Assembly (NCBI GenBank): GCA_041663045.1
Contig: JBAZRH010000001.1
Coordinates: 276,403 to 340,402, forward strand
Direction: 5' to 3'
Source of the DNA: Minisyncoccota bacterium
Lineage (GTDB): Bacteria; Patescibacteriota; Minisyncoccia; Phycocordibacterales; GWA1-40-21
Length of the DNA: 64,000 nt
Positions 9,486 through 63,855 of this stretch are shown here, one piece after another. Below the pieces are notes generated by a model. That model saw only the letters and a list, made by a program, of their open reading frames with translations. It was not told where the DNA came from and did no database searches. Positions within the stretch are counted from its first letter, which is position 1. Each line of letters begins with the position of its first letter. Position numbers and translations under genes: made by a program.

Positions 9486-9947
9486 ATGTCGAGTATGAGT
9501 ATACATAAAATAATTAAAGACGGAATAAAAGAAGCGATGTTGAAAAAAGATGTATTAAGGCTTACGGTGCTTCGCGGAGTATCTTCTGCCTTTACAAACG
9601 AAATAATCGCAAAAGACATAAAAGGAGATGAATTGGGAGATGAAGAAGCTCTTGCAGTTATACGAAGACTCGTAAAACAGAGAAAAGACTCTATCGAACA
9701 ATTTACAAAAGGTGGCAGACCAGAGCTTGCAAAAGCTGAAGAAGCCGAGATGAAAATACTTGAAGCTTTCTTGCCACAAATGATGAGTGAGGATGAAGTG
9801 AGAAAAGTTGTGGAAGCGAAAATCGCTTCTGCCGGAAATGTGGATAAAACAAAAATCGGACAATTTATCGGCTCCGTGATGAAAGAACTTAAGGGGAAGG
9901 CGGATGGAGCAGTGGTGAAAAAGGTTGTTGAGGAATTGGTGAAATAA
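9486..9947 (+). CDS. yqeY: GatB/YqeY domain protein
   Basis: YqeY-like helical domain (LTVLRGVSSAFTNEII...ELAKAEEAEMKILEAFLP). An upstream GTG at 9459 is possible, but the ATG at 9486 is more likely. Confidence 0.7.
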   Translation: MSSMSIHKIIKDGIKEAMLKKDVLRLTVLRGVSSAFTNEIIAKDIKGDELGDEEALAVIRRLVKQRKDSIEQFTKGGRPELAKAEEAEMKILEAFLPQMMSEDEVRKVVEAKIASAGNVDKTKIGQFIGSVMKELKGKADGAVVKKVVEELVK

Positions 9948-10070
9948 AAGCTCCCTCCCATCACTATTTTCCACCAGTGTGCCTTCATCCCGAAGAAAAT
10001 CATAATCGCTGTTCTATACGAAAAATCCCAGAGTCGCTCCCGCACCTCCCGCCCGTGAGGTTTTTCTGTT
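9948..10070. repeat. Intergenic repeat, family B copy 1
   Basis: Shares ccattttc(c/t)caccagtgtgccttca...gaaaatcat..tcgctgttctatacgaaaaatc with 42128-42320 and, inverted, 53500-53645. Confidence 0.75.
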
Positions 10071-26307: not shown

Positions 26308-26486
26308 AAAAAGTTGAGGATTTGTAATTTGTTGTGTCCGCAGGCTCCTTTTCTGGTGCGATGTGGTGTAATTTTGCGAGAAGTAATCTTTGAGCAAAAG
26401 TATACCACATCGCAAGCCGCCGAGGATTAGGAAATTTTTCGGCTGGGAAAAATTTCTGCACAACAAATTGTAAATCCTCAACCTTG
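26308..26486. repeat. Long near-perfect palindromic repeat, family A copy 1
   Basis: aaagttgaggatttgtaatttgttgtgtccgcagg...ggtgcgatgtggtgtaattttgcgagaagtaatctttgagcaaaagtataccacatcgcaagcc...ctgcacaacaaattgtaaatcctcaacc. Confidence 0.8.
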
Positions 26487-30008: not shown

Positions 30009-31514
30009 ATGAAAAACAAGCTATCAGAAATCGGCAAGCTCATCACCGAGCTTCGTGAGAGACGCGGTATCACACAATCGGCTTTTGCTGAAAAGCTTGG
30101 CACAACACAAAGCGTAATCGCCCGCATAGAAAGCGGTGAGCAAAATCTAACCACAGAAATGCTTGAGAAAATCGGCGAAGCGCTAAATAAAGAAATCTTT
30201 ACAATATCGAAAGGTGCGATGAATCTTGAAATAGAAGGCGGACACAAACTCTCCGGCTCGGTGATTACAAAAACATCCAAAAACGGTGCGATGGGTATTA
30301 TCTCCGCTTCCCTACTAAACAAAGGTAAAACACTTTTAAAAAATGTGCCAAAAATTGAGGAAGTTTACAGAATGGTAGAAATCTTGGAAAGCATCGGTGT
30401 ATCTATCAGGTGGATTGGAGATGATCTGGAAATCGAGGTCAAGAAAATTGATCTCAAAAAGATAAATAAAGAATCCGCCGAGAAAACCAGAAGTATTATT
30501 ATGCTCATCGGCTCACTTTCACACTTTTTCAAGAAGTTTTCCCTACCACAATCCGGCGGATGCAAGCTCGGCTCGAGGACTGTCACCCCGCATTTTTTCG
30601 CCCTTGAGAATTTCGGTGTAAATATAGTCGCGAAATCAAAAAGTTATGAAATTTCGGCAAGTAAACTTAAGCCCGCAGAATTCGCCCTTTATGAAAGTGG
30701 AGATACCGTCACGGAAAACGCCATAATGACCGCCGCCCTTATCCCAGGGAAATCCGTCATCAAATTCGCCTCCGCCAATTATATGGTGCAAGATCTGTGC
30801 TTTTTCTTGGAAGGGCTTGGTGTAAAAATAGAAGGTATCGGTACGACCACCCTCACTGTGCATGGCGTATCGGAAATAAATAAAAATATTACATACTACC
30901 TCGCCGAAGATCCGATCGACTCAATGTTTTTCATAGCCACAGCAATACTCACAAATTCCTCTATAAAAATAGAACGCTGCCCGATAGATTTTCTTGAAAT
31001 AGAATTGCTAAAACTCAAAAAGATGGGCTTTAAATATAAATTATCAAAAGTCTATAAAGCACTGAACGGTAAGACGAATCTTGTAGACATCACCACTTCC
31101 CCTTCCCGACTCACAGCACTTACCGATAAAATAGAAGCGAGGCCCTTTCCTGGGCTCAATATCGACAACCTGCCTTTCTTCGCAGTCATCGCCACACAAG
31201 CCGTCGGGCAAACTCTCATACACGATTGGGTTTATGAAAAAAGAGCGATTCACTACAAGGAGCTAGACAAGCTCGGTGCCGATACTATTCTCGCCGACCC
31301 GCATAGATTTTATGTAAATGGAAAGACAGATTTGCGACCGACAGAAATAATCTGCCCGCCAGCTCTCCGCCCCGCCGCGATTATTTTGATAGGAATGCTT
31401 GGTGCAAAAGGCAGATCGATTTTGCGAAATGTTTACAGCATAAATCGCGGATATGAAGACATTGTGAAGAGGCTGAATGGTTTGGGAGCGAAGATAAAGA
31501 TGTTGAGGGATTAG
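30009..31514 (+). CDS. murA: XRE-family HTH domain fused to UDP-GlcNAc 1-carboxyvinyltransferase (MurA)
   Basis: The N-terminal 65 aa are an XRE HTH (LRERRGITQSAFAEKLGTTQSVIARIESGEQNLT). The remainder is MurA, with GGHKLSGSVITKTSKNGAMGII, catalytic Cys in GGCKLGSRTVTPH, and C-terminal INRGYEDIVKRLNGLGAKI. Confidence 0.8.
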   Translation: MKNKLSEIGKLITELRERRGITQSAFAEKLGTTQSVIARIESGEQNLTTEMLEKIGEALNKEIFTISKGAMNLEIEGGHKLSGSVITKTSKNGAMGIISASLLNKGKTLLKNVPKIEEVYRMVEILESIGVSIRWIGDDLEIEVKKIDLKKINKESAEKTRSIIMLIGSLSHFFKKFSLPQSGGCKLGSRTVTPHFFALENFGVNIVAKSKSYEISASKLKPAEFALYESGDTVTENAIMTAALIPGKSVIKFASANYMVQDLCFFLEGLGVKIEGIGTTTLTVHGVSEINKNITYYLAEDPIDSMFFIATAILTNSSIKIERCPIDFLEIELLKLKKMGFKYKLSKVYKALNGKTNLVDITTSPSRLTALTDKIEARPFPGLNIDNLPFFAVIATQAVGQTLIHDWVYEKRAIHYKELDKLGADTILADPHRFYVNGKTDLRPTEIICPPALRPAAIILIGMLGAKGRSILRNVYSINRGYEDIVKRLNGLGAKIKMLRD

Positions 31515-40609: not shown

Positions 40610-42127
40610 ATGCCATATGAAGATATAATTTCATTGATGGACTCACCATCGAAAGATGATGTAGCGCTTATAAAAAAAGCAACAACTTTTGCTGAAGAAG
40701 CACATAAGGACATAAAGAGAAAATCTGGTGAACCTTATTTCAACCATGTCTTTGAGACAGCTAAAACTCTAGCAAGCTTCAAGACTGACTCTGCAACGAT
40801 AGCTGCAGGGCTTTTACATGATTCAATAGAAGATGGTGTGGCGACAGAAGAAGAAATAAAGAAAGGATTTGGAGATGAAATACTCTTTTTAGTAAACGGG
40901 GTTACAAAGCTTGGAAAAGTAAAGTATCGAGGAGCGGAAAGACATATAGAAAGCTTGAGGAAATTCATGGTGGCAATGTCACAAGATATTCGAGTACTCA
41001 TCATTCGTCTTGCCGACCGTCTTCATAATATGAAGACTTTACAATATGTCCGACCCGACAAACAAAAGAGAATTGCCCTTGAAACTCTCGAGATTTACGC
41101 ACCACTCGCCTACCGTCTTTCTATAAGGAAACTTTCACGTGAGCTTGAAGACCTCTCGTTTGAATATGTAAGCCCAGAGGAATATGATGGTACAGTAGTT
41201 CTCTTAAAACAAAAGAAAGACGAGACCTTACCACGATTGGAGAAATTTATAAAATCTGTAAAGAAAGCCCTAGCTAAGGAAAGAATGACAAATATAAAAA
41301 CAGACTATAGGCAGAAAGGAATATATAGTCTCTTTCAAAAACTCAAATCTAAAGGAAACGATATAGAAAAGGTCTATGATATATTGGCGTTGCGTGTAAT
41401 GCTACCCGATGTCCAAGATTGCTATAAAGCTCTCGGAATAATACACGGTGTGTGGAGACCGCTTCCAGGAAGAATAAAAGATTATATAGCGTTTCCAAAA
41501 CCAAACGGCTATCAAAGCTTGCATACTACAGTTTTCACTGGTGACGGTTCAGTAGTAGAAGTACAGATAAGAACGGAAGAAATGCACAGAAATGCTGAAT
41601 TCGGTATCGCCTCTCATATTTCATACAAAGATAGTCACAAAAATGGGAACAAAAGTTCTGATATTGATTGGTTTAGACAATTTCTACCAAGGACTATTAA
41701 TTTTGCAAAGGTAAATAAATTAAATAATAAAAAAGAAATGCCAGAGTGGATTACAGAACTTGCTGATTCTCAAGATGGAATAAAGACTAGTGGAGAAAGA
41801 GAGGAATTCTTAGAAGATCTAAAGGCCGACTTCTTCTGTCAAAGGATTTTTGTGTTTACACCAAAAGGAGAGGTAGTAGATTTGCCTACTGGTTCATCTA
41901 CTCTTGATTTCGCATATGCGATTCATTCTGACGTAGGGGACCACGCAAGTGGAGCGAAGATAAATGGCAAACTCGTAGCCATGAAAACAGAATTAAATAA
42001 TGGTGATATTGTAGAGATTAGCACAAGTAAATCTAGTAAACCAAGTTCCAAATGGTTGGAAATTGTAAAGACGAATATGGCGAAAAGACATATTAATAAT
42101 TATTTGGAGAAGCAGAAGAAAAAATAA
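40610..42127 (+). CDS. rel: Short bifunctional RelA/SpoT-homolog (HD hydrolase + synthetase + TGS domains)
   Basis: HD motif HDSIED, synthetase region (RIKDYIAFPKPNGYQSLHTTV) and a TGS domain. No ACT domain. Confidence 0.85.
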   Translation: MPYEDIISLMDSPSKDDVALIKKATTFAEEAHKDIKRKSGEPYFNHVFETAKTLASFKTDSATIAAGLLHDSIEDGVATEEEIKKGFGDEILFLVNGVTKLGKVKYRGAERHIESLRKFMVAMSQDIRVLIIRLADRLHNMKTLQYVRPDKQKRIALETLEIYAPLAYRLSIRKLSRELEDLSFEYVSPEEYDGTVVLLKQKKDETLPRLEKFIKSVKKALAKERMTNIKTDYRQKGIYSLFQKLKSKGNDIEKVYDILALRVMLPDVQDCYKALGIIHGVWRPLPGRIKDYIAFPKPNGYQSLHTTVFTGDGSVVEVQIRTEEMHRNAEFGIASHISYKDSHKNGNKSSDIDWFRQFLPRTINFAKVNKLNNKKEMPEWITELADSQDGIKTSGEREEFLEDLKADFFCQRIFVFTPKGEVVDLPTGSSTLDFAYAIHSDVGDHASGAKINGKLVAMKTELNNGDIVEISTSKSSKPSSKWLEIVKTNMAKRHINNYLEKQKKK

Positions 42128-42320
42128 ACTCCCTCCGCCCCGCCATTTTCTCACCAGTGTGCCTTCACCCCAAAGAAAATCATAGTCGCTGTTCTATACG
42201 AAAAATCAAGAACTCGCCACATCAGAATGTGTCTCAAACAACTTGATTTTTCTAAACAGCTCTTTGATTTTACTTGGGGTTCTCGGCAATGGTGAGAAAA
42301 TGGCGGGGCTTCGGTCAACA
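42128..42320. repeat. Intergenic repeat, family B copy 2 (long palindromic form)
   Basis: ccgccccgccattttctcaccagtg...caatggtgagaaaatggcggggcttcgg arms. Its core matches 9948-10070 and, inverted, 53500-53645. Confidence 0.8.
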
Positions 42321-47203: not shown

Positions 47204-47366
47204 GTATACAATGGGCTATAAAATAATGCAAGTATCGCCTTGACTTTACTATCATAATATGATAGCATACTAAACGGAAAGTCAGGAGGATTAGTGATTA
47301 CTAACTCCCCCATTGACAATTGAATATGCGGTCAAAAAGGCGCTAATTTGCGCGAAAGGTTTGGAC

Positions 47367-48509
47367 ATGAAAATAAAATTGATTGTTGGATACTTGATAG
47401 CAAATGCTATCTTGCTCCTCATTGGGCTGGGACTAATTCTTTTTAAGGTCTCGGTTGATGTAGAGAATCGTTTCAACTTAGGGTTCATTATCATCTCTCT
47501 GCAGATGGTATATTTCGCCCTCAGTTGTAAGATCATCGGGCCGAGAATAAAGGCCGTGCTGGTCTTTCTGGGAAATCCGGTGTATGAGGTTAGTTCTGGT
47601 TTTGCTTTTGTACCATTCTTGTTTTCCTGGCTAGAAAAAATGCCAGGAACAGTGATACAGATGCAAATACCCGGAGAACCAGAGATGATTGACAGAAGTG
47701 GGGATGATAAGAAAAAACTGTCTCCCGGAATGGTTCGACCAATCCGTATCACGACTGGTTTTGCGGCAGTGGCAATTAAAAACTTCCCTGCTGACAAGAA
47801 AATCATCATGGACGATCCGTTGCAGAAGCGTATGACCCTAGAAGTCACGGGGTACATACGTATGAAAGTTAAAAACGCAGTTGAATACCTCAAGAACCTT
47901 GGAAGTATTGAACAATTGGAAAAACAGGTCCGAGATACTTTTGAGGCCACAATGAATGTGGAGTTCGGAAGACGAACCCCAGGCTTGATCACAACACACC
48001 TGAAAGAAGTTAATAAGGCTCTGTTGCGAGAAATGAAAAGAATTGTGGAAAAACCTGGATGGGGACTTGAGGTAGAGAGTGTAGGACTTTTGGAAAGGGA
48101 TATCACCCACCAGCTCAACACGGCACTTCGTGATGCCTCAATGGCTGATGTAATGATTCAGACAGCTGAGTCCCAAAAACAACAGGCAATCAGAAAGGCT
48201 GAGGGTGAAAGACAGAAGAGGATTCTGGAAGGTCAGGGGGATGGCTTGGCAGAGCAGTCTGTACTAGAAGGACGTGCTAAAGGACTCGAGAAGTGGGTTG
48301 ATCTGGCGAAAACCAGAGAAGGCTTAATCACCTTACAAATTCAGCTCGCAAATGAAACTGTGCAGAAGGCGAAGTACAGTATCCTTGAGCCTGGATTAGC
48401 TGGTCTTGCGGCGGGAGTCCAACACACATTGCAACAAATCGGTGCAGCAGGTGGTACATCAAAAACCCCTGTAACGCCAGCTAAAAAGGGCGGAGGAGGT
48501 AATCCATGA
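47367..48509 (+). CDS. SPFH/band-7 (stomatin/flotillin/HflKC-like) membrane protein
   Basis: N-terminal TM helix, SPFH domain, and a coiled-coil region rich in Q/E/K/A (ESQKQQAIRKAEGERQKRILEGQG). GC is higher than genome background. The ORF-track start at 47313 is also possible. Confidence 0.7.
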   Translation: MKIKLIVGYLIANAILLLIGLGLILFKVSVDVENRFNLGFIIISLQMVYFALSCKIIGPRIKAVLVFLGNPVYEVSSGFAFVPFLFSWLEKMPGTVIQMQIPGEPEMIDRSGDDKKKLSPGMVRPIRITTGFAAVAIKNFPADKKIIMDDPLQKRMTLEVTGYIRMKVKNAVEYLKNLGSIEQLEKQVRDTFEATMNVEFGRRTPGLITTHLKEVNKALLREMKRIVEKPGWGLEVESVGLLERDITHQLNTALRDASMADVMIQTAESQKQQAIRKAEGERQKRILEGQGDGLAEQSVLEGRAKGLEKWVDLAKTREGLITLQIQLANETVQKAKYSILEPGLAGLAAGVQHTLQQIGAAGGTSKTPVTPAKKGGGGNP

Positions 48510-49096
48510 CCATAATAAGTTATGGAGTAATTGCATTGGTCATAGGTGTAATATCTATACCGGTGGCCATTGCGATAGAAGCCAAAAAGTCTCGCCTGCA
48601 GGGCAATAAGACTGCTGGCAATAAACTAACACCTATCTCGAAGACGATCTTGATAGCAGGATCGGTGTTGGGCCTTTTGATTGGAGGAATCTTCATCAAA
48701 AACTTAACATCGAAATCTGCGACTGAGGTCGCTAAAGTCCGTGTCAAAGCGCCGAGAGAAATCCGGTGGGAGATGTGGTGGGTCAAGAATCCTCTACAGC
48801 CAGGAAGAAACCCGGATATAGTAAGTGCCAGATTCAGGGTTGAAATGACCAGAGATGATGAGCAGGTATTTGAATTCACCCAGTTCTACCAAGATTGGGG
48901 GAAAGAGAAGACCTCTCATTTTTACTGGGACAAGAAAGTAAACTGTGAATACGGCATCTGGGAAGAAGCTTCCACAGGAGTGAAGGGGCGCTGGTATTTG
49001 AAGAAAATCCCCGGAGAGAAAAATATGTACTCCGGCGGAATGTCCAGTATGGATGAAAAGGACGATTGGGCGCCGTTCTTCCTTTCTGGGAAATGA
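48506..49096 (+). CDS. Membrane protein co-transcribed with the SPFH gene (2 TM helices plus a Trp-rich soluble domain)
   Basis: ATGA overlap with the SPFH gene. No recognisable NfeD OB-fold. Confidence 0.55.
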   Translation: MTIISYGVIALVIGVISIPVAIAIEAKKSRLQGNKTAGNKLTPISKTILIAGSVLGLLIGGIFIKNLTSKSATEVAKVRVKAPREIRWEMWWVKNPLQPGRNPDIVSARFRVEMTRDDEQVFEFTQFYQDWGKEKTSHFYWDKKVNCEYGIWEEASTGVKGRWYLKKIPGEKNMYSGGMSSMDEKDDWAPFFLSGK

Positions 49097-49170: not shown

Positions 49171-49180
49171 ATACTCAAAT

Positions 49181-49212
49181 CAAAACCGAGCGACTTAAGT
49201 CGCTCGGTTTTG
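49181..49212. terminator. Bidirectional terminator
   Basis: aaaaccgagcgacttaagtcgctcggtttt. Confidence 0.75.
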
Positions 49213-49223
49213 ATTTTATAAAT

Positions 49224-49520
49224 TTACAGACCAAATGTTCCCATTACTAGGTTTATTATTCCTTTCACCGAAAGCATAATAAACATCCCTATTACCCCAT
49301 AAAGCATATGCATTCCGCCCTCTGCTCTTTTTTCTGCACTTTCTGCATTCTTTACGAATCCATATACTCCGTAAAGAAAAACTACAAGTGCCCAAATAAA
49401 CAACAAATATATCGCTGGATTTAGTATTTCAGCTTTGATCTTTGAAAACATTGAGTCAAAACTGGTACCTTCACCAGACATCACATTTGCCGCATAGACT
49501 TTGGTGAACAGAAAATTCAT
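49224..49520 (-). CDS. VirB2/TrbC-pilin-like double-TM mini-protein, paralog 5
   Basis: Two hydrophobic helices separated by the charged loop KNAESAEKRAEGG. Shares the YGVYGFVK and MLYGVIGMFIMLSVKGIINLV signatures with the four upstream paralogs. Confidence 0.55.
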   Translation of the reverse strand: MNFLFTKVYAANVMSGEGTSFDSMFSKIKAEILNPAIYLLFIWALVVFLYGVYGFVKNAESAEKRAEGGMHMLYGVIGMFIMLSVKGIINLVMGTFGL

Positions 49521-49526
49521 TTATTG

Positions 49527-49895
49527 TTAGTAGGTTATAGGTACAATATTTTGAATGCCCGCATCTAATGCACTGGCGCCACGTGTGTTGAAAGTTGATT
49601 GCAAGATATTTACCAATCCCCAGACAGAAACCATGACAAAGATACCAACTATACCATAGATAATCTGTGTCTTTGCAGTTTTCTTTTTGTCTTCATCTCC
49701 AGCAATAGTGTACTGAAAAACCTCCCAAATAAAATAAACAACGGCGATTGCTATAAATAGCGGAACAAGCATAGACAATATTCTAGCTGCCCAAACGATT
49801 AAGCCACTCAATCCCTGACCTGTTGTATATGTTACCTGAGCCAAAGCCATAACTGGCAAAGCAAATGTAACTCCGACTGCTAATACTTTTTTCAT
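49527..49895 (-). CDS. VirB2/TrbC-pilin-like double-TM mini-protein, paralog 4
   Basis: Sec signal peptide (MKKVLAVGVTFALPVMALA), TM1, loop AGDEDKKKTAKTQ, and TM2 IIYGIVGIFVMVSVWGLVNILQSTF. Confidence 0.55.
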   Translation of the reverse strand: MKKVLAVGVTFALPVMALAQVTYTTGQGLSGLIVWAARILSMLVPLFIAIAVVYFIWEVFQYTIAGDEDKKKTAKTQIIYGIVGIFVMVSVWGLVNILQSTFNTRGASALDAGIQNIVPITY

Positions 49896-49995
49896 AATTA
49901 AACTAATTAATAAACTAATAATTCCTAAAAATGACGACCATTTTTAATTAACACTATAATTATAAACCAATCCAGTAAATAGGCAAATGGGTTAT

Positions 49996-50397
49996 CTACA
50001 GCTTTGGGATATTGATATCCGAATTACCAAGCTTAAATGTGTTTTGCAATACCGATACCAATCCCCAGACAGAGACCATGACAAAGATACCAATAATGCC
50101 CCAAAGGATAAACTCCCTACCTGATTGTTTGTCATCACCTTCAGCCCTAATAAACTTAAATACTCCATAAAGAAATACAACAACAGCAAGGGCGACCAAT
50201 AGATATACAACGGGTTTTAATATTCCACCGATAATTATATTATTAATTAATTCTTTAAAATTATGCGGACTAGAAACAGAAGACGTGCCGGCAGCAAAAG
50301 TAGCTGTACTAGAGAGAAAAAGCACTCCCAACACTACCGAAGACAATATATGACTTATCAATTTGGTTTTATTTTTCATCTTATTATTTTGCCACAT
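49996..50397 (-). CDS. VirB2/TrbC-pilin-like double-TM mini-protein, paralog 3
   Basis: Signal peptide, TM1 VFLYGVFKFIRAEGDDKQ, and TM2 ILWGIIGIFVMVSVWGLVSVLQNTF. An alternative start lies at 50379. Confidence 0.55.
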   Translation of the reverse strand: MWQNNKMKNKTKLISHILSSVVLGVLFLSSTATFAAGTSSVSSPHNFKELINNIIIGGILKPVVYLLVALAVVVFLYGVFKFIRAEGDDKQSGREFILWGIIGIFVMVSVWGLVSVLQNTFKLGNSDINIPKL

Positions 50398-50725
50398 TAT
50401 TAATTGTACCAGTAACTATATTTGCTATAAGTTGTGAACCGAGCAAGATAACAATACCAATAATCGTCCATTTAAATGTATCCTTTGCTTTTGTTATCTC
50501 CCCAGGATTACCGCGAGCATCTACAAATAGATATCCAGCATATATTAAAAACATAATACAAATTACAGAACCAATCTCTATTACTACATTTAGGAAACTT
50601 TTTACAGTTCCAATTAAACTATCACTTTTAAGTGGGTTTGTGATTGTTTGACCGTGGGAAATTAATGGTATCAACAAAAGTGAGAAGAGAAAGATCGATG
50701 TGAGATTTATTAAAATTTTTTTCAT
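50384..50725 (-). CDS. VirB2/TrbC-pilin-like double-TM mini-protein, paralog 2
   Basis: Signal peptide, TM1 MFLIYAGYLFVDARGNPGE, and TM2 WTIIGIVILLGSQLIANIV. Confidence 0.5.
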   Translation of the reverse strand: MKKILINLTSIFLFSLLLIPLISHGQTITNPLKSDSLIGTVKSFLNVVIEIGSVICIMFLIYAGYLFVDARGNPGEITKAKDTFKWTIIGIVILLGSQLIANIVTGTINNVAK

Positions 50726-50751
50726 ATGATTATTCTAATTAATATATTATT

Positions 50752-51171
50752 TTATTTCAAGAATTTCAAATAAAGTGAGCTATCCTTGGTCAACCCCTTT
50801 ACTATAGCATATACGATAACCCAGGCACACAACAAAAAGAACAGTCCATAAACACTCTTTTTAAACATTGCCAGAGCTCTTTCCCTTTCTCCAGAATTGT
50901 TTGGATTCAACAAAATTCTCCCCCCTGCAATCGCAAAAGTAACAGTAGCAATAGTCGCAGAAATGCCGATAACCCACTTTATAAAGTTGTCTATCATACT
51001 AACAAAAGCATCAAAATCACATGGGCACTCTGGACTACCATCACATCCGATTATTCCTCCTAACATAACACATTCTATTGGTACAGATTTCGAAGCCGCC
51101 AAGGAGATGGCTGGTACAACAAATATTACTATCGCCAATACACAAAATAGAACTTTCAAATTAAATTTCAT
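50752..51171 (-). CDS. VirB2/TrbC-pilin-like double-TM mini-protein, paralog 1 (Cys-rich N-terminal region)
   Basis: Signal peptide, a CxxxxxxxCxxxxxCxC segment, then TM1, the loop NPNNSGERERA, and TM2. Confidence 0.5.
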   Translation of the reverse strand: MKFNLKVLFCVLAIVIFVVPAISLAASKSVPIECVMLGGIIGCDGSPECPCDFDAFVSMIDNFIKWVIGISATIATVTFAIAGGRILLNPNNSGERERALAMFKKSVYGLFFLLCAWVIVYAIVKGLTKDSSLYLKFLK

Positions 51172-51178
51172 ATATAAA

Positions 51179-52477
51179 TTATAACAAATAATCTAACTCT
51201 TGGCTTGCTTTCTTCAATGAGTCTAGCGTCTTTGATCTGCCTGTTGTAATGTCATTTATCATGTTTTGAAATATCTGACTTGTCTTTACACTGTCTGGAT
51301 CAAGCCAACCTTTTGATATAAGAGCTGAATTATAGAAGATGGTTTGGGATAGATCGGCTGTGCCAGCAGAAATAGTATCTCTCCTCGCTGGAGAATAGCT
51401 AGTAAATCGCAAAAAGACAGAGGATACATCCGGCCCAGTAAGGGTTGATATTGTAGTATAGGCTTGCGCTATGTTTTTAGAGCTATTCAGAATAGCAAAA
51501 CCTTGAATATCTCCGTAGGTGGTCTTTGTCTTTGTATCAACCACTTGTGGTAACATGGCAACATCAAAATTCAGGTTTGGATTCTTAGCTCTAAGATCTG
51601 GAAGTTCAGACGCTTTGCCGAAATATAAAGCTAAATCCCCACTTAAGAACAGCTGTTTATCCGATACCAAAGCACTATTCCAAGAATAAACTGATTTCTT
51701 AGGATTTGAATAATCGGTATAAAAATTTAATGCTTGTTCTACAGGAGACAAAACACCAGCTTCGAGATTACCAGAATTTGATATTAGTGAACTATTTAGT
51801 TTGGTGCCGTCAGATTGAACGATTTTATTACCGGTCTGCATTATCAGTGCGCTTATTATCTCTTTTGCATTGTTTATATTATTAAATCCCCCAAAAGCAA
51901 CGGCACTCTGTAATATGTTGGCATTGGTATCACTTTTTGAAAACTTACTAGCTAAAAGTGGAATTTCAGACCATTTAGTTGGTGGCGTGGCTATTCCTGC
52001 TCCAGAAAAGATATCTTTATTCCAATACATGACAAGAGGGTCTACAAAAAATGGTAAGGCGGTTATTCCACTCGATGTAATATATAAATTACTTTCTTGC
52101 ACAAAAGTATCACTAAATATCCTCTCTGATAAAATTTGAGGGGAAATCAGAGAAATCTTATCAGAATATCTTATTATTAAATCGCTCGGTAATAAGACTA
52201 CGTCTGGACCTTTCCCACTTGCGATCGCCTCAATAAGGGATTGATCAAGAATAGACCGCTCTTTCTGTGTATATTTTATATTCAATTCTATATTTAAATC
52301 CTGTCTAATTTTACTTAAGAGATTGTTAAATATATTTTGATCAACTGAACCCCAAATAGATATTTCAGCATTGTTTGTTTTGCTATTATTGACTTTATAA
52401 GATGCAAATATTACGAGTCCAAGAATTATAAAAAAACCAAAGATCGAAAGAAGTATTATTTGAAAGCTGTTTTTCAT
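51179..52477 (-). CDS. Membrane-anchored extracellular solute-binding protein (ABC-type, family 1) without adjacent permease or ATPase genes
   Basis: N-terminal TM anchor followed by an SBP_bac_1-like fold (GPDVVLL..., ALPFFVDPLVMYWNKD...). Confidence 0.6.
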   Translation of the reverse strand: MKNSFQIILLSIFGFFIILGLVIFASYKVNNSKTNNAEISIWGSVDQNIFNNLLSKIRQDLNIELNIKYTQKERSILDQSLIEAIASGKGPDVVLLPSDLIIRYSDKISLISPQILSERIFSDTFVQESNLYITSSGITALPFFVDPLVMYWNKDIFSGAGIATPPTKWSEIPLLASKFSKSDTNANILQSAVAFGGFNNINNAKEIISALIMQTGNKIVQSDGTKLNSSLISNSGNLEAGVLSPVEQALNFYTDYSNPKKSVYSWNSALVSDKQLFLSGDLALYFGKASELPDLRAKNPNLNFDVAMLPQVVDTKTKTTYGDIQGFAILNSSKNIAQAYTTISTLTGPDVSSVFLRFTSYSPARRDTISAGTADLSQTIFYNSALISKGWLDPDSVKTSQIFQNMINDITTGRSKTLDSLKKASQELDYLL

Positions 52478-52478
52478 A

Positions 52479-53003
52479 TTATTTTCTAAAGATTATTCCG
52501 TAATGATTTGCACCTGCGGAGATTTCTCTATCAATTACAAAGCCATGTTTTTTAAAAAGTTCTAATGCCCTTTCTTTTGATAGGACATCTTTGGATTGTG
52601 GACCAATACCACCAAAAGAACTAAGCCAGTCTATAAGAAGAATCCTACCGCCCTTTTTGAGAATTCTTCTGGTCTCCAGAATAACATTATCTTTTTGCTC
52701 AAGTTGGAAAAGAATATTCGCCATTATTGCTGAATCTATAGAAGACTCGCGGAGTTTTGTACCGCCCAAGTGTTCCAAGTCTGCCCAAACAATATCTATA
52801 TTTTTAAGATGCCTAAGATTAGCTTCTTTTTTGAGTTTTTGAAGAAGATCTTTTTGAACGTCCACAGCATAAACTCTGCCGTTTTCTCCTACAGCTTCAG
52901 CTGCAGCAAAAGAATAATACCCTGCGCCGGAACCAAGGTCGGCAACATAAGTACCCTTCCCCAAACTAAATTGTCCTATATTTTTTTCAGGATCGGAAAA
53001 CAT
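52479..53003 (-). CDS. Class I SAM-dependent methyltransferase
   Basis: Motif I VADLGSGAGYYS, the acidic-loop residue in VYAVDV, and motif IV IDWL. Confidence 0.7.
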   Translation of the reverse strand: MFSDPEKNIGQFSLGKGTYVADLGSGAGYYSFAAAEAVGENGRVYAVDVQKDLLQKLKKEANLRHLKNIDIVWADLEHLGGTKLRESSIDSAIMANILFQLEQKDNVILETRRILKKGGRILLIDWLSSFGGIGPQSKDVLSKERALELFKKHGFVIDREISAGANHYGIIFRK

Positions 53004-53149
53004 GATTGATTTTTAAGGAGTGAAATGACTATAAAAATCATCACCCTGCGAAATGGAGTTTGCTTTGGCAAACGACATATTTCACTGGGGTCTATTTCAC
53101 TTGGTTAATTATATCATAATAAAATACTGACAAGTAGGGCGGGTGTGGA

Positions 53150-53312
53150 GAAAAAGCTCATTCACATCCCCGCTTTTCTGTGCAGAAATTTTCCCCAGCC
53201 GGAAAATTTCCTAATCCTCGGCGGCTTGCGCTGTGGTATACTTTTACTCGAAGATTACTTCTCGCAAAATTACACCACATCGCACCAGAAAAGGAGCCTA
53301 CGGACACAGAAA
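53150..53312. repeat. Family A repeat copy 3 (inverted orientation)
   Basis: Reverse complement of the 26308-26486 and 61520-61757 cores: ctgtgcagaaattttccccagccggaaaatttcctaatcctcggcggcttgcgctgtggtatactttt...ctcgcaaaattacaccacatcgcacc...ggacacag. Confidence 0.8.
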
Positions 53313-53499
53313 AATGGGGACGTTCATTCGCTTACAGCAGAAAAATACGGCTTTGTAAAGCCATACTTCATAAGCGAGCGAGATTCTCAATTTTCTAGCA
53401 TTGCCGAGAACCCGTGATAGAAGCAGTGTTCACTCTTATATTAGCTTCCTCGGCTCGGAAATGAAAAAGGAATTTTCATTTCTCTCGCTCTACGTCGCT

Positions 53500-53645
53500 A
53501 ATAAATCAAGGAGATGTTTAGAAAAATCAAGTTGTTTGAGACACATTCTGATGTGGCGAGTTCTTGATTTTTCGTTAAGAACATCGACTATGATTTGACT
53601 CTGGTGAAGGCACACTGCTAGAAAATTGAGAATCGAGCGAGCGTT
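53500..53645. repeat. Family B repeat copy 3 (inverted orientation)
   Basis: gagacacattctgatgtggcgagttcttgatttttcg is the reverse complement of the 42190-42230 segment. Ends with gaatcgagcgagcg. Confidence 0.8.
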
Positions 53646-56116
53646 TAAATCAAGGTTACCGACGCAATACTATCCCCTTCTCTTAATTTCATAACTCTCA
53701 CACCCTGCGTCTGCCTACCGAGCGAAGGAATTTCTTTGACCGCCACGCGTATGACCTGACTCTTTTTTGAAATAGTTGCGATTTCGTCTTCGCCGTCTGT
53801 GACGACTTTTGCGGAAATAATCTCCCCCGTTTTTGGTGTAACTTTCATGGTCTTGATACCAGACCCGCCTCTCTTTTGCACTTTATATTCTTTGAGTGGA
53901 GTTTTCTTTCCATAACCGTTTGAGCTCACCACGAGAAGCTCCGGATTCTGCATTGTTTTTGAAATAATGGCTGTACCGACGACAGTATCCCCTTTTCCAA
54001 GCTTTACACCACGGACACCAGAAGCATTCCTGCCCATAACGCGAATATCTTTATCTTTGAATCTGATAGATTGCCCTTTCGATGTGGCGATTATCGCCTC
54101 GTCGCCGTCATTCATAAAGAGCGCCGACTGAAGCTCATCTCCTGCATCTAGAGTGATGGCTATCAAGCCGTTTCTACGAACGTCTTTGAAGTTTTCTGCA
54201 TCCACCCTCTTTGCCGTACCGTTTTTCGTCACAAAGATAAGTGAGAGTTTCAAATTCTTCATCGCCTTTGGCATAGCAAGGACAGAAGTGATTTTCTCCT
54301 CACCAGAAATCGCCAAGTAGTTTACAATCGCCTTGCCTTTTGTCGCTCTCTTACCTTCTGGCAATTCATACATTTTTATTTGATACGCCTTTCCTTTGTC
54401 TGTGAAGAAGAGAATATCATTGTGTGTAGAAGCAGTAATAAAATGAGTAATAAAATCTTCATCTTTTGTATCAAGGTCCACCACTCCCACCCCACCCCTC
54501 TTCTGCTTTCTGTATTCGTCTGGGTTTGTCCTCTTTACATATCCGCCAGCAGTAAGGACGAGCATACTTTCTTCGTCTGCTATCAAATCTTCATCTGAAA
54601 GTGTCTGTACTCCGCCTTTTATAACTTTTGTCCTTCTCTCATCGCCGTATTTGGCTTTGATTTCAAGAAGCTCGGACTTAACTATTTCGAGAATTCTCTT
54701 TGTCTTTGCCAAAATATCTTTCAAATCTTTTATAAGGGCCTGCACGGCAGAAAGCTCATCTTCGATTTTCTTTCTCTCAAGTCCGGCGAGCTTCTGCAAA
54801 CGCATTTCAAGAATGGCATTGGCTTGGATTTCCGAAAACTTAAATACTTTCATGAGCTGTGCACGAGCGTCATCTACGTCTTTTGATTTCTTTATAAGTT
54901 TGATGATTTCGTCTATATGATCAAGCGCCTTTTTCAAACCAAGCAAAATATGCTCTCTCGCCTCGGCCTTTTTCAAATCAAATTCTGTCCTCCTTTTTAC
55001 GACAATCTTTCTATGATCTATGAATTCTTCCAGGAAAGAAAGGAGTGAAAGTGTCTTCGGTACGCCGTCTACAAGAGCGACAAGGTTGAAGTGAAATGTC
55101 TCCTCGAGCTGTGTATGTTTATACAAATAATTCAAAACGCTTTGTGGCTGAGCGCCATTTTTGAGGTCAACGACAATACGGATGTCTTTTGCAGACTCAT
55201 CACGCAAACCCCTTATACCTTCTATTTTCTTTTCACGGACAAGCTCGGCGATAGCGATGATAAGCTCGGCTTTGTTGACCCTATAAGGTATCGAGGTGAT
55301 TATTATCTGAAATTGACCTTTTTTGTCTTCTACTATTTCGGCATGACCTCTCGTCACCACCCCTCCTCTACCTGTGGAATATGCGTGGTTGATATCTGTT
55401 TGATTGTAAATCATCCCGCCTGTCGGAAAATCTGGCCCTTTTATAAATTTCAAAAGGTCTTCAGTGGTAGCATCTTCATTGTCTGCCAAGTGAATAGTTG
55501 CATCGATCACCTCTCCAAGGTTGTGCGGGGGGATATTCGTCGCCATACCGACAGCAATACCGAGAGTTCCGTTTAACAAAAGGTTCGGCACACCGGCTGG
55601 AAGGACGGTTGGTTCTTTTTTGGTATTGTCATAGTTGGGCTTCCAATCAACGGTTTCTTTTTCCAAATCTTTCAGCATTTCACCGGCGATTTTTGACATC
55701 TTCGCCTCGGTGTATCTCATAGCGGCGGCTGAATCGCCGTCTATGTTTCCAAAGTTTCCCTGACCGATAATATGCGGATATCTAAGTGAGAAATCCTGTG
55801 CCATTTTGACCATAGAATCATAGACAGCAACATCGCCGTGCGGGTGATAATTTCCAAGTACTTCTCCGACCACAGCGGAAGATTTCCTTGTCCTTGCACC
55901 TGCGGTAAGGTTCATTTGGCCCATGGCATAAAGGATTCTTCTATGCACTGGTTTCAAACCATCGCGGACATCGGGAAGGGCGCGGTCTGTGATGACAGAC
56001 ATGGCATAGTCGATAAATGACTCTTTCATTTCGGTCGTAATGCTTCTGTCGGAAAGAGCTCTATGCTCTATTTTTACAGCTTCCTCTCCATTTCCTTCTG
56101 ATTTGTTTTTCGCCAT
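53645..56116 (-). CDS. gyrA: DNA gyrase subunit A
   Basis: [14 protein letters not shown], the active-site Tyr region, and C-terminal beta-pinwheel repeats. Confidence 0.9.
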
Positions 56117-61519: not shown

Positions 61520-61757
61520 TTCGTAAGCGAGCGAGACTTGTGATTTTTGAGCATTACATGCTTTAATCTATTTCATGAGCGAGCGAGTATTCCGATTTTG
61601 TTGTGTCCGCAGGCGAGCTTGCATGGTGCGATGTGGTGTAATTTTGCGAGAAGTAATCTTCGAGCAAAAGTATACCACATCGCAAGCCGCCGAGGATTAG
61701 GAAATTTTTCGGCTGGGGAAAATTTCTGCACAACAAAATTGGGATACGAGCGAGCTA
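61520..61757. repeat. Family A repeat copy 2
   Basis: About 95% identical to the 26320-26475 core. Flanked by three CGAGCGAG motifs (61523, 61577, 61746). Confidence 0.8.
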
Positions 61758-61796
61758 TTTGTGTCAAACCCCTTTCCGTATTATAATGCCCTTTAC

Positions 61797-62384
61797 ATGA
61801 AAAAATTCGTCAAAGAAACCCTCGGCGTGGTAATCCTATCCGTAATAATCGTTCTCCCCGTCCGCATATTCATAGCCCAGCCATTTATCGTTTCTGGAGC
61901 ATCTATGGATAATTCTTTTGCCGGCGGTAACTATTTAATAATAGATGAGCTTTCATATAGATTTGAAGCCCCAAAAAGGGGTGATGTTATTGTTTTTAAA
62001 GTGCCAGAAGAAGCCCTCGTACTTTCTCACTATGCATTAGACAAGACTGTATTTTTTATCAAAAGAGTTATCGGCCTTCCGGGTGAGACAATAGAAATAG
62101 ATGGCGATAAAGTTACAATCTTTAATACAGAAAATCCAAAAGGTCTTGTACTTAGTGAGCCTTACGTTTATATAGACAAGCTCTCCCCTTACTACACGGT
62201 TGTAAATAAAAAAATCACCCTTGGTGCAGACGAATATTTTGTTATGGGAGACAATCGCCACAACAGCTCCGATTCAAGATTCTGGGGTACACTGAAAAAG
62301 GAAAATATAAAAGGCCGAGCATTTGTCCGTCTTTTCCCTTTCACACAGATATCACTTTTCCCAGGAGAATATAATCAATATTAA
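61797..62384 (+). CDS. lepB: Signal peptidase I (S26)
   Basis: SGASMDNSF (catalytic Ser), the VKRVIGLPGE motif, and GDNRHNSSDSRFWG. A TATAAT at 61779-61784 lies about 12 nt before the ATG, so the mRNA may be leaderless. The ORF-track start at 61761 is less likely. Confidence 0.85.
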   Translation: MKKFVKETLGVVILSVIIVLPVRIFIAQPFIVSGASMDNSFAGGNYLIIDELSYRFEAPKRGDVIVFKVPEEALVLSHYALDKTVFFIKRVIGLPGETIEIDGDKVTIFNTENPKGLVLSEPYVYIDKLSPYYTVVNKKITLGADEYFVMGDNRHNSSDSRFWGTLKKENIKGRAFVRLFPFTQISLFPGEYNQY

Positions 62385-62385
62385 T

Positions 62386-63582
62386 ATGACAAAACAGAAA
62401 AAAACGAGAAGGGTGGCTGAATCAAAATTTATAAACTTTACACCAATAGACAAAGCTGTTGAAGCTGCGATTTATTATGGCTTTACACCGACAAAACACC
62501 CTAAGGCAAATAAAGAAGATCTTGTAAGGATTTCTGCATTAAAAGAAAGTTGGGCCAAAAGCTGCGCCGAAATGCCTTGGGTTTTCTCTACAGAATTTGC
62601 TGAAGAAAGAGCTGCGTTTTTGAGAGAATATTTTGAACAAAGCATGAATATACTCCCCCAGCCAGTAATGCTCGTCTATGAAAGCGAAACAGGAAAAGAA
62701 AGAGGGAAAAATTCTTTCAATCTTGAAGTTGTAGGTACACCAAAGAGTATTGCCGAAGCCCTTCTTATAAAAACAGCTGTAGCCATACTCGAAGATAATG
62801 GCTATAAGAATCTTTCAATAGAAATCAATAGTATTGGTGACAAAGAATCTTTAAATAAATTTGCAAGAGAGCTTACAAACTACTACAAGAAAAATATAAA
62901 TGAGCTCTCTCCTCATTGCAGGCAAAATTTTAAGAAAGATGCCTTTTATGTTCTCAATTGTGATAAGTGTGAGTGTACAAAGTTAAAAGAAGGGGCACCC
63001 ACTTCTGTGGGATGTCTTTCTGATGAGAGCCGGGTACAATTTAAAGAAGTCTTTGAATATATTGAGACAATGGGAATACCTTTTAAGATAAATAACTGCC
63101 TTGTACCAGATAGAAAGTATTGTTCACAGACTATCTTTGAAATTAAAGATAATGAAAGTGAAGATGCCCTAGCTATCGGCTTTAGATACGACGGGCTTGC
63201 ACAGAAAATCGGTCACAAGAAAGATTTACCTGGAGTTGGATTAAAAGTCTTCCTTAAGAAAAAGTCTACTATTAAAAAAGTCTCAAAACTTAATAAACCC
63301 ACTGCTTTCTATGTGCAACTTGGCGATGATGCAAAACATAAAAGTTTGGAAGTAATAGAGGCTCTTAGAAAAGAAAAAATATTTATTTATCATATGCTTG
63401 GAAGGGATAAATTTGGTAGCCAGTTTGCACTTGTAGAAAAGTCTAAGGTCCCTTATGTGATTATTATGGGCAAAAAAGAATCGCTGGAAAACTCCGTGAT
63501 GATAAGAGAAAATGCCACGAGAACACAAGAGACCATCAAAATAAGTGATTTAGCAAAGTATTTGAAGAAACTTAAGGCCTAA
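62386..63582 (+). CDS. HisRS-like class II aaRS paralog (catalytic-like core plus anticodon-binding domain; degenerate motif 2)
   Basis: HisRS-like insertion region, IGFRYDGLAQKIG (motif-3-like), and a C-terminal class II anticodon-binding domain. Motif 2 arginines are not conserved (YESETGKERGKNSFNLEVVG). Confidence 0.6.
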   Translation: MTKQKKTRRVAESKFINFTPIDKAVEAAIYYGFTPTKHPKANKEDLVRISALKESWAKSCAEMPWVFSTEFAEERAAFLREYFEQSMNILPQPVMLVYESETGKERGKNSFNLEVVGTPKSIAEALLIKTAVAILEDNGYKNLSIEINSIGDKESLNKFARELTNYYKKNINELSPHCRQNFKKDAFYVLNCDKCECTKLKEGAPTSVGCLSDESRVQFKEVFEYIETMGIPFKINNCLVPDRKYCSQTIFEIKDNESEDALAIGFRYDGLAQKIGHKKDLPGVGLKVFLKKKSTIKKVSKLNKPTAFYVQLGDDAKHKSLEVIEALRKEKIFIYHMLGRDKFGSQFALVEKSKVPYVIIMGKKESLENSVMIRENATRTQETIKISDLAKYLKKLKA

Positions 63583-63855
63583 AAGCTCGCTCATATCACT
63601 ATTTTCCTGTGCAGAAATTTTCCCCAGCCGAAAAATTTCCTAACTCCTTACAGGAGCAGTACACCTTTCACATTTTGAGTACAAAACGTTCAAGGTCTTT
63701 TATTTGGGTCCCTTACCCAAATCTCAACTCGGCGGCTTGCGCTGTGGTATACTTTTGCTCGTGAATACACTTCGCAAAATTACACCACATCGCACCGCAC
63801 AAGCTCGCCTGCGGACACAGGAAAATAGTAATATTCGCTCGCTTATCGCTTGCAT
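63583..63855. repeat. Family A repeat copy 4 (inverted) interrupted by a roughly 90 bp insertion
   Basis: The arms match 53150-53312. The insertion (about 63645-63735) contains tttgggtcccttacccaaat, shared with the pseudo-tRNA region at 10798-10820. Confidence 0.75.

Follow-up and report, generated by a model that had tools for sequence, protein, structure and literature searches.

The window analysed here is a 64,000-nucleotide stretch of contig JBAZRH010000001.1 from a Minisyncoccota bacterium (assembly GCA_041663045.1, positions 276,403 to 340,402), and it contains a compact block of seven minus-strand genes coding for a methyltransferase, a solute-binding protein (SBP) and five small pilin-like proteins designated W1 to W5. 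All seven open reading frames (ORFs) are present where an earlier interpretation made from the DNA letters alone (the sequence-only reading) had placed them, and we analysed these together with a scan of about 50 ORFs spanning the window, which is part of a core chromosome. The conserved block begins with a class I S-adenosylmethionine (SAM)-dependent methyltransferase of 174 aa (52479–53003), followed by the 432 aa SBP with an N-terminal hydrophobic anchor (51179–52477), and then by W1 (139 aa, 50752–51171), W2 (113 aa, 50384–50725), W3 (127 aa, 49996–50379), W4 (122 aa, 49527–49895) and W5 (98 aa, 49224–49520), which represent pilin-like classes 1 to 5 respectively. The GC content of the window is 34–44%, and NCBI locus tags WC631_01640–01650 are assigned on the source contig.

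The seven genes are packed tightly between gyrA (53645–56116) and a convergent pair consisting of an SPFH gene (47313–48509) and a gene of unknown identity (48506–49096). The intergenic gaps are 1 nt between the methyltransferase and SBP genes, 7 nt between the SBP gene and W1, and then 26, about 4, 100 and 6 nt between successive pilin genes, a spacing that is operon-like. The W3 ORF extends to 50397, but a start at the second ATG (50379) is more likely because the deposited NCBI protein from the same contig (P0001) is 127 aa long, and because a 14-nt overlap with W2 is thereby removed. W1 to W5 are real genes and not chance ORFs, since each has orthologues in dozens of genomes. Between W5 and the convergent gene at 48506–49096 lies a palindromic hairpin (49177–49216) that begins 8 nt past the W5 stop codon and has a perfect 18-bp stem; its predicted folding energy is -28.9 kcal/mol (z -9.95), none of 200 shuffled sequences folds as well, and it is a probable bidirectional terminator. 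It was missed by a generic promoter and terminator scan, whose counts were not above those of shuffled sequences, because the T-run forms part of the stem.

All five small proteins score above the gathering threshold of 26.6 bits for PF18895 (T4SS_pilin), with 40.7 bits for W1, 43.7 for W2, 34.5 for W3, 41.8 for W4 and 31.9 for W5, and the family is also matched by 67 of 68 class-2 and 62 of 64 class-1 orthologues. Scores for the TrbC/VirB2 family PF04956 (gathering threshold 27.9 bits) are lower in the window, at 22.4 bits for W2, 15.4 for W3 and 11.0 for W1. Counted at E ≤0.01, PF04956 is matched by 58 of the 68 class-2 orthologues (best E 9.6e-10) and by nine of the 64 class-1 orthologues, and by its profile matches class 2 appears to be the canonical TrbC/VirB2-like member, the most so of the five. 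W2 scores 39.2 bits against the curated cut-off of 40 bits for NF045849, the Mbov_0395 family of pilin-like conjugal transfer proteins, and the other four score between 16.7 and 29.3 bits.

W1 to W4 each have a signal-peptide-like hydrophobic N-terminus with an ordinary type I end (SLA/A in W1, SHG/Q in W2, TFA/A in W3 and ALA/Q in W4), then two long hydrophobic helices with a short loop rich in K, R, D and E between them. W5 has only two hydrophobic segments (residues 31–56 and 69–94) and no signal peptide. Hydropathy, together with an AlphaFold2 (AF2) model of W4 that shows a leader helix and a hairpin (helices 28–64 and 68–101; predicted local distance difference test score, pLDDT, 73.5), agrees with the leader, two helices and charged loop of VirB2-type pilins, with W5 lacking the leader. 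In structure matching to VirB2, the two-helix hairpin matches only generic hairpins. The sequence-only reading had described this architecture and had proposed five VirB2/TrbC-like pilins, and both proposals stand, as does its view that these are not type IV (PilA) pilins: no N_methyl or other prepilin family matches any of the five at E ≤1 in Pfam or NCBIfam, and at the same level neither a holin nor a bacteriocin-immunity protein finds family support.

Profile comparisons extend these relationships. The pilin classes are mutually homologous (hhalign probability 99.4–99.5%), and a profile of classes 3, 4 and 5 aligns with an Mbov_0395 family protein of the Firmicute Pontibacillus (hhalign probability 96.5%, E 9.4e-10), which is encoded in a monoderm type IV secretion system (T4SS) cluster, 4 kb from the gene of a VirB4-like ATPase. 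When 72,556 plasmids were searched with tblastn, W2 gave no match and W4 a single weak one (E 0.6) that was informative only after the hhalign comparison. Against PDB sequences the pKM101 pilin TraM ranks first for the class 3/4/5 profile, but with an E of 0.38, and the class-2 profile gave nothing useful. The family is very large, as a profile built from the five proteins retrieves 56,977 cluster representatives at E ≤0.001 among 1.84 billion proteins, and NCBI labels some close homologues 'pilin' (P0038, P0107). We conclude that the five proteins are probably the pilin set of a Paceibacteria T4SS of the monoderm (MPF-FATA-like) type. The suggestion in the sequence-only reading of an uncharacterised small-protein secretion system becomes unnecessary, the family being a known Patescibacterial T4SS pilin family.

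Many database proteins carry between two and 17 tandem T4SS_pilin domains (P0241–P0383), with 17 matched stretches in the 1775 aa protein P0255, and two-domain fusions occur inside the related arrays (L007, 10001–10687; L087, 12550–13281). These multi-domain proteins may be real 'polypilins' or may be artefacts of gene calling. Apparent first pilin genes of 560 aa in three loci were considered as adhesin fusions and rejected as over-extended ORFs.

To compare the array with its relatives we used two sets of loci. The first comprises arrays from three other lineages (L002/L003, L004–L006 and L007), which share the layout gyrA, methyltransferase, SBP and five or six pilins. The second comprises the best 80 of at least 554 SBP matches in species-representative genomes, titled Paceibacterota, Taylor-, Nomura-, Zambryskii-, Wolfebacteria and similar, in which the SBP is 41–58% identical to that of the window and the pilin genes downstream of it were classified one by one. 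In all-against-all BLASTP, the best match of each window pilin is the protein at the same position in each other array (53–160 bits, 30–80% identity), and W5 is 80% identical to its counterpart L002_5, whereas the paralogues within the window match one another with only 15–67 bits and 15–36% identity overall. The methyltransferase–SBP–pilin block recurs in every one of the 80 loci that extends far enough, and the class order is conserved across the set, where the commonest orders are 1-2-3-4-5 (20 loci), 1-2-3-4-4-5 (10 loci) and 1-2-4-4-5 (six loci). Where a contig end does not truncate the array, the first, second and last positions almost always belong to classes 1, 2 and 5 respectively, and copy number varies only in the closely related middle classes 3 and 4, with one to four copies per array and a general order of 1-2-(3/4)n-5.

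The rate of divergence can be gauged from neighbouring genes. Identities to L002, L004 and L007 respectively are 95, 87 and 65% for gyrA, 90, 73 and 51% for the methyltransferase, 70, 57 and 37% for the SBP, and 58–80, 42–58 and 28–40% for the pilins. Judged by these values, the pilins diverge about as fast as the neighbouring SBP and are not hypervariable. Together with the closer one-to-one positional orthologues and the conserved class order, this indicates that the five copies are an old set of specialised, non-redundant subunits.

The sequence-only reading had attributed the five diverged copies to diversifying selection, and a related idea, that interchangeable major pilins are kept diverse for antigenic or host-surface variation, has been proposed for the VirB2 copies of Bartonella and Anaplasma and, tentatively, for Patescibacterial arrays by Quinonero-Coronel et al. 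2025 (Microb Genom; PMC12102498). The low identity between paralogues, the exposed N-terminal linkers that differ greatly in length and composition between genomes, and the variable number of class 3/4 genes would all fit such a diversification or host-range array. However, we regard it as unlikely, because each class has positional orthologues much closer than any paralogue, the order from class 1 and class 2 through to class 5 is fixed over 80 loci, individual classes keep fixed features such as the cysteine loop of class 1 and the missing signal peptide of class 5, and the identity of pilin orthologues in the nearest genome (58–80%) tracks that of the SBP (70%); only the class 3/4 genes could fit. 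The claim of diversifying selection on the five copies is thus not borne out.

Returning to the reading of a specialised pilin set, the classes differ in recognisable ways. In 64 class-1 orthologues, two cysteines that precede helix 1 are almost invariant (consensus LVPC-G-x6-C-x-F). Classes 3 and 4 have a GI(V/I)GIFVMVSVWGLV helix in common. Of 52 class-5 orthologues, nearly all are without a signal peptide. Across genomes the stretch linking the signal peptide to helix 1 varies, from a few residues to more than 100 of low-complexity or cysteine-repeat sequence, and class-3 orthologues have a variable low-complexity linker at this position; such variability fits an exposed N-terminus, as on known conjugative pili.

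Two further observations concern individual classes. A 68-nt stretch that encodes the GI(V/I)GIFVMVSVWGLV helix is 79% identical at the nucleotide level between W4 (49588–49655) and W3 (50033–50100), which could reflect strong constraint or past gene conversion between classes 3 and 4. At the N-terminus of class 5 (49491–49520 in W5; orthologues in L008–L087), many proteins start with M..F..K(V/A)YA(A/Q), a motif that, just about 10 residues into the protein, resembles an A-x-A peptidase site.

In most arrays the widest intergenic gap (median about 100 nt) is the one preceding the class-4 gene that adjoins class 5, and in the window the corresponding minus-strand interval (49896–49995) contains a conserved sigma-70-like promoter and the 5' leader of W4. 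The promoter consists of TTGCCT (49986–49981) and TATAAT (49964–49959) separated by 16 nt, matching the sigma-70 consensus at 10 of 12 positions, and it is followed by GGTCG (49939–49935) and by a TTATTAG motif ahead of the ATG. An alignment of this gap from 21 lineages shows TTG, a spacer of about 17 nt, TATAAT, GGTCG about 20 nt downstream and then TTATTAG, and the TTG, TATAAT, GGTCG and TTATTA columns are each conserved in at least 70% of the lineages. Because class 4 has a conserved promoter to itself and varies in copy number, we infer that it is the likely major subunit and that, together with class 5, it may be transcribed more strongly than the genes before it. The GGTCG and TTATTAG motifs are kept in lineages whose SBPs are only 41–70% identical (L002, L004, L009–L087), and are candidates for a regulator site, an RNA element or a translation signal.

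The SBP matches SBP_bac_1 with 62.5 bits (cut-off 26 bits; E 8.8e-17) and also SBP_bac_8. Its AF2 model has a pLDDT of 90 and in Foldseek is closest to SBPs for manno-, sophoro- and malto-oligosaccharides (E about 1e-21), and the protein is predicted on this basis to have the CUT1/MalE family-1 oligosaccharide-binding fold. A single hydrophobic segment occupies residues 1–30, with no lipobox cysteine. Many aromatic residues are invariant among relatives, which would be consistent with a conserved glycan ligand. No gene for an ABC permease or ATPase (BPD_transp_1, ABC_tran) was found among the ORFs scanned across the window, as the sequence-only reading had noted, and the gene calls flanking the related loci L002–L007 include none either. 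The methyltransferase (Methyltransf_31, 64.9 bits, E 8e-18) has no hydrophobic segment and is predicted to be cytoplasmic; among NCBIfam and PDB entries it is closest to arsenite or UbiE-type methyltransferases and to uncharacterised ones, so that a role in methylating phospholipids or pilins would be speculation. Both genes lie upstream of the pilins.

Linkage of these genes to the pilins is tight. Among loci with at least 3.5 kb of sequence downstream of the SBP (n=57), pilin genes follow the SBP directly in all 57, and 53 of these have four or more; the median gap is 4 nt. In 74 of 77 related loci the SBP gene is immediately preceded by the methyltransferase gene, and in 19 the two overlap by 4 nt. 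The gyrA gene lies further upstream in 59 of 64 loci, and the block is intact in the five loci without gyrA there; downstream neighbours vary (MurJ, SPFH and others). Because the block stays intact without gyrA and the downstream genes vary, rearrangement breakpoints respect the methyltransferase–SBP–pilin block.

An alternative explanation of this linkage is that the pilins are T4SS pilins, with the SBP and methyltransferase as unrelated neighbours held by inherited synteny beside gyrA in a slowly rearranging region. A Lactamase_B_3 gene is conserved upstream together with gyrA in the same 59 of 64 loci, the methyltransferase resembles a housekeeping enzyme in being conserved much more strongly than the SBP and the pilins, and a Saccharibacterial array has no SBP, all of which this explanation would accommodate. 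It is nevertheless improbable given where the breaks fall, which is between gyrA and the methyltransferase (five loci) and right after class 5, but never between SBP and pilins (0/57) and only rarely between methyltransferase and SBP (3/77). The 4-nt median gap, the common stop-start overlaps of methyltransferase and SBP genes, and the equal rates at which SBP and pilins evolve also argue against incidental proximity.

If the five proteins are T4SS pilins, the remaining machinery is presumably encoded elsewhere. No gene for VirB4, VirB6, VirB11 or VirD4 was found among the ORFs scanned across the window, in line with the sequence-only reading, which had reported no VirB4, VirB6 or VirD4 nearby. 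Nor does any of the 80 related loci have a VirB4-like gene within 10 kb of the block; the large ORFs there encode DnaE, GyrB, PriA, HisRS, ParB, RelA, and surface proteins with immunoglobulin (Ig) or fn3 domains. Two block-carrying genomes, L035 (GCA_001821295.1) and L075 (GCA_007376805.1), are listed as VirB4-positive in Table S1 of PMC12102498, a study which gives 2,474 virB4 genes across 3,035 genomes, and related arrays in Saccharimonadia and Microgenomatia sit beside virB4. From these relatives and the literature we assume VirB4 and VirB6 in this organism. In Table S3 of the same study, as available, PF18895 matches are given only for genes near virB4, and the Nomurabacteria genome GCA_000990275.1 has consecutive T_virB2, PrgF and PrgF matches about 240 genes from virB4. 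These scattered matches look like the same kind of block, and virB4-distal arrays may therefore be under-counted among the 441 arrays published.

A T4SS-independent membrane module, in which an oligomer of hairpins would act without VirB4 as a conduit for oligosaccharide captured by the SBP, would suit the lack of VirB4 within 10 kb in the 80 loci and in the window, the constant joining of pilins to an SBP with no permease or ATPase nearby, and the conserved oligosaccharide-SBP fold with its many invariant aromatics, but it is very improbable in view of the clear homology to T4SS-embedded pilins, the Saccharimonadia and Microgenomatia arrays beside virB4, the block-carrying relatives with VirB4 elsewhere, and the lack of any precedent that we could find for such a transporter.

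Several findings weigh against the assignment of the five proteins to a T4SS pilus. The scanned ORFs of the window include no T4SS component, and the presence of VirB4 and VirB6 in this organism is an assumption; the PF04956 score of W2 is below threshold; hhalign detects no profile similarity to the pCF10 pilin-like protein PrgF; a pilus has not been reported on any Patescibacterium in the literature examined; and the conserved gyrA and Lactamase_B_3 genes mean that linkage within the block could partly be general synteny.

On balance we favour the T4SS pilin set, and a plausible route of assembly can be proposed. Each pilin would insert as a two-helix hairpin that spans the cytoplasmic membrane, its charged loop facing the cytoplasm and its two termini on the outer side. 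Classes 1 to 4 would enter through Sec with a cleavable signal peptide removed by signal peptidase I (a LepB gene is at 61761–62384), and class 5 would insert without a leader. A VirB4/VirB6-type machine encoded elsewhere would then extract the pilins and stack them as a helical tube, with the charged loop lining its lumen in the arrangement of VirB2, TraA and PrgF pili. Class 4, with its own promoter and variable copy number, would likely be the major (bulk) subunit. Classes 1 (with its cysteine loop and variable exposed N-terminus), 2 (TrbC-like) and 5 (leaderless), which are invariant and single-copy, would likely be minor, initiating or tip subunits, and class 3 may join them as an initiating, adaptor or tip subunit. 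The co-transcribed, membrane-anchored SBP would most likely act at the same surface, either as a receptor or sensor for host glycans or in the capture of host-derived oligosaccharide.

More tentatively, the methyltransferase–SBP–pilin block could be a distinct surface module of Paceibacteria that is unlinked from virB4, in which the SBP is a dedicated partner of a heteromeric VirB2-like pilus, serving as a host-glycan receptor or trigger or as a capture protein, and the methyltransferase modifies a pilus component or a bound lipid. We consider this extended proposal possible though doubtful; if true, it would be the first concrete molecular handle on what the T4SS of the candidate phyla radiation (CPR) touches on its host. 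A large part of bacterial diversity belongs to the Patescibacteria, which live attached to host cells, and in the single species tested their T4SS and its pilin array are essential. The five fixed classes, the class-4 promoter and the co-encoded SBP turn a 'variable pilin array' into a testable model of a heteromeric pilus, and an oligosaccharide-binding SBP points to glycans as a candidate class of host ligand.

The PF18895 family and tandem VirB2-like arrays are already known in Patescibacteria. In Southlakia epibionticum, six PF18895 genes (SEML1_0014–0019) lie inside the T4SS cluster, and epibiotic growth requires each of them (Wang et al. 2023, Cell; PMC10633639). That array resembles the one described here in having five to six tandem, divergent PF18895 genes of about 100–185 aa, some matching PF04956, on the chromosome of a monoderm CPR organism. 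It differs in its position inside a T4SS cluster beside VirB6-like and PrgI genes and in having no SBP or methyltransferase, whereas the window array sits in a methyltransferase–SBP block with no T4SS gene found in 64 kb, and essentiality is established only for S. epibionticum. A wider survey (PMC12102498) describes 441 VirB2-like arrays of 2–11 genes across 383 assemblies of Patescibacteria, with Microgenomatia and Saccharimonadia the richest in them; mean identity within arrays is 25%, and a role in host-range versatility is suggested. The arrays belong to the same Pfam family and represent the same tandem-array phenomenon, but the available part of the report holds no mention that we found of a virB4-distal Paceibacteria block with an SBP, of positional orthology or of an internal promoter. 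An SBP alongside VirB2-like arrays is likewise not mentioned in the portions of the literature on these arrays that were searched. The arrangement in five fixed classes, the internal promoter and the coupling to a methyltransferase and SBP throughout the clade, away from virB4, appear to be undescribed.

Other reports place these arrays in a broader setting. According to a 2025 review, the Patescibacterial systems are the only pilin-bearing monoderm T4SSs, and in co-cultures of Paceibacteria that parasitise methanogens, T4SS pilins rank with the secreted proteins of highest expression (Kuroda et al. 2024). A 2024 perspective describes the role of the Saccharibacterial T4SS as 'completely unknown'. 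A preprint of December 2025 (ter Beek et al.) reports that PrgF of pCF10 is VirB2-like; in its model the pilus sits on a VirB6 pentamer, and the lumen is lined by the charged loop.

Among better characterised pilins, the diderm VirB2, TrbC, TraA and TraM proteins (PF04956) share the leader, the two hydrophobic helices and the short charged loop, and class-2 orthologues match the family directly; VirB2/TrbC pilins differ in being encoded usually by a single gene in a virB or trb operon, followed by VirB3 and VirB4, and in being processed by cyclisation or acetylation. The Mbov_0395/MMCAP2_0565 family (NF045849) and PrgF are likewise small two-helix proteins of MPF-FATA-type systems, and PrgF, like class 5, has no signal peptide, but their genes are single-copy and adjoin VirB6, VirB3 and VirB4. 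By analogy only, TraC/PrgZ of pCF10 is also an SBP that lacks a permease of its own and whose gene accompanies a monoderm T4SS element. TraC/PrgZ is an OppA-like family-5 SBP that feeds the chromosomal Opp permease. It is annotated as peptide pheromone-binding, whereas the SBP of the window has a predicted family-1 oligosaccharide-type fold, and there is no sequence relationship between the two.

The spacer between gyrA and the methyltransferase gene (53004–53644) is unusually long, at 640 bp compared with 43–190 bp in relatives, and carries copies of two dispersed intergenic repeat families. Further repeat sites are at 26328–26467, 61575–61760, 63581–63846, 9942–10027 and 42122–42270. Family A has four copies of about 140–170 nt with 85–98% identity and folds strongly (-58.9 kcal/mol, z -4.25), and family B has three copies of about 90–130 nt with 80–95% identity. 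An Rfam search of the spacer and repeats gave no match. The repeats could be elements like miniature inverted-repeat transposable elements (MITEs) or repetitive extragenic palindromes (REPs), or could be small RNA genes.

The other genes identified in the window are all housekeeping genes. They include those for the tRNA synthetases LeuRS, LysRS/AsnRS-type, ProRS/ThrRS-type, SerRS and HisRS; for TopA, GyrA, PriA, DprA, ParB, RelA and GreA; for MraZ, MraW, two PBP2, a Mur ligase, MurJ, two MreB, MreC and FtsQ; and for RRF, Pth, RseP, LepB and MiaA, with RNase P RNA and three tRNAs. Two of the encoded proteins have noteworthy domain arrangements. The leucyl-tRNA synthetase (minus strand, 5065–7935, 956 aa) has a NUDIX domain at residues 393–513 (E 7e-16) inserted after the editing domain, an unusual architecture. 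A MurA/EPSP-synthase-family protein (plus strand, 30009–31514, 501 aa) carries a Cro/C1-type HTH_3 domain at its N-terminal end (residues 14–63, E 1.5e-14), a fusion that joins a DNA-binding domain with a cell-wall or shikimate-type enzyme.

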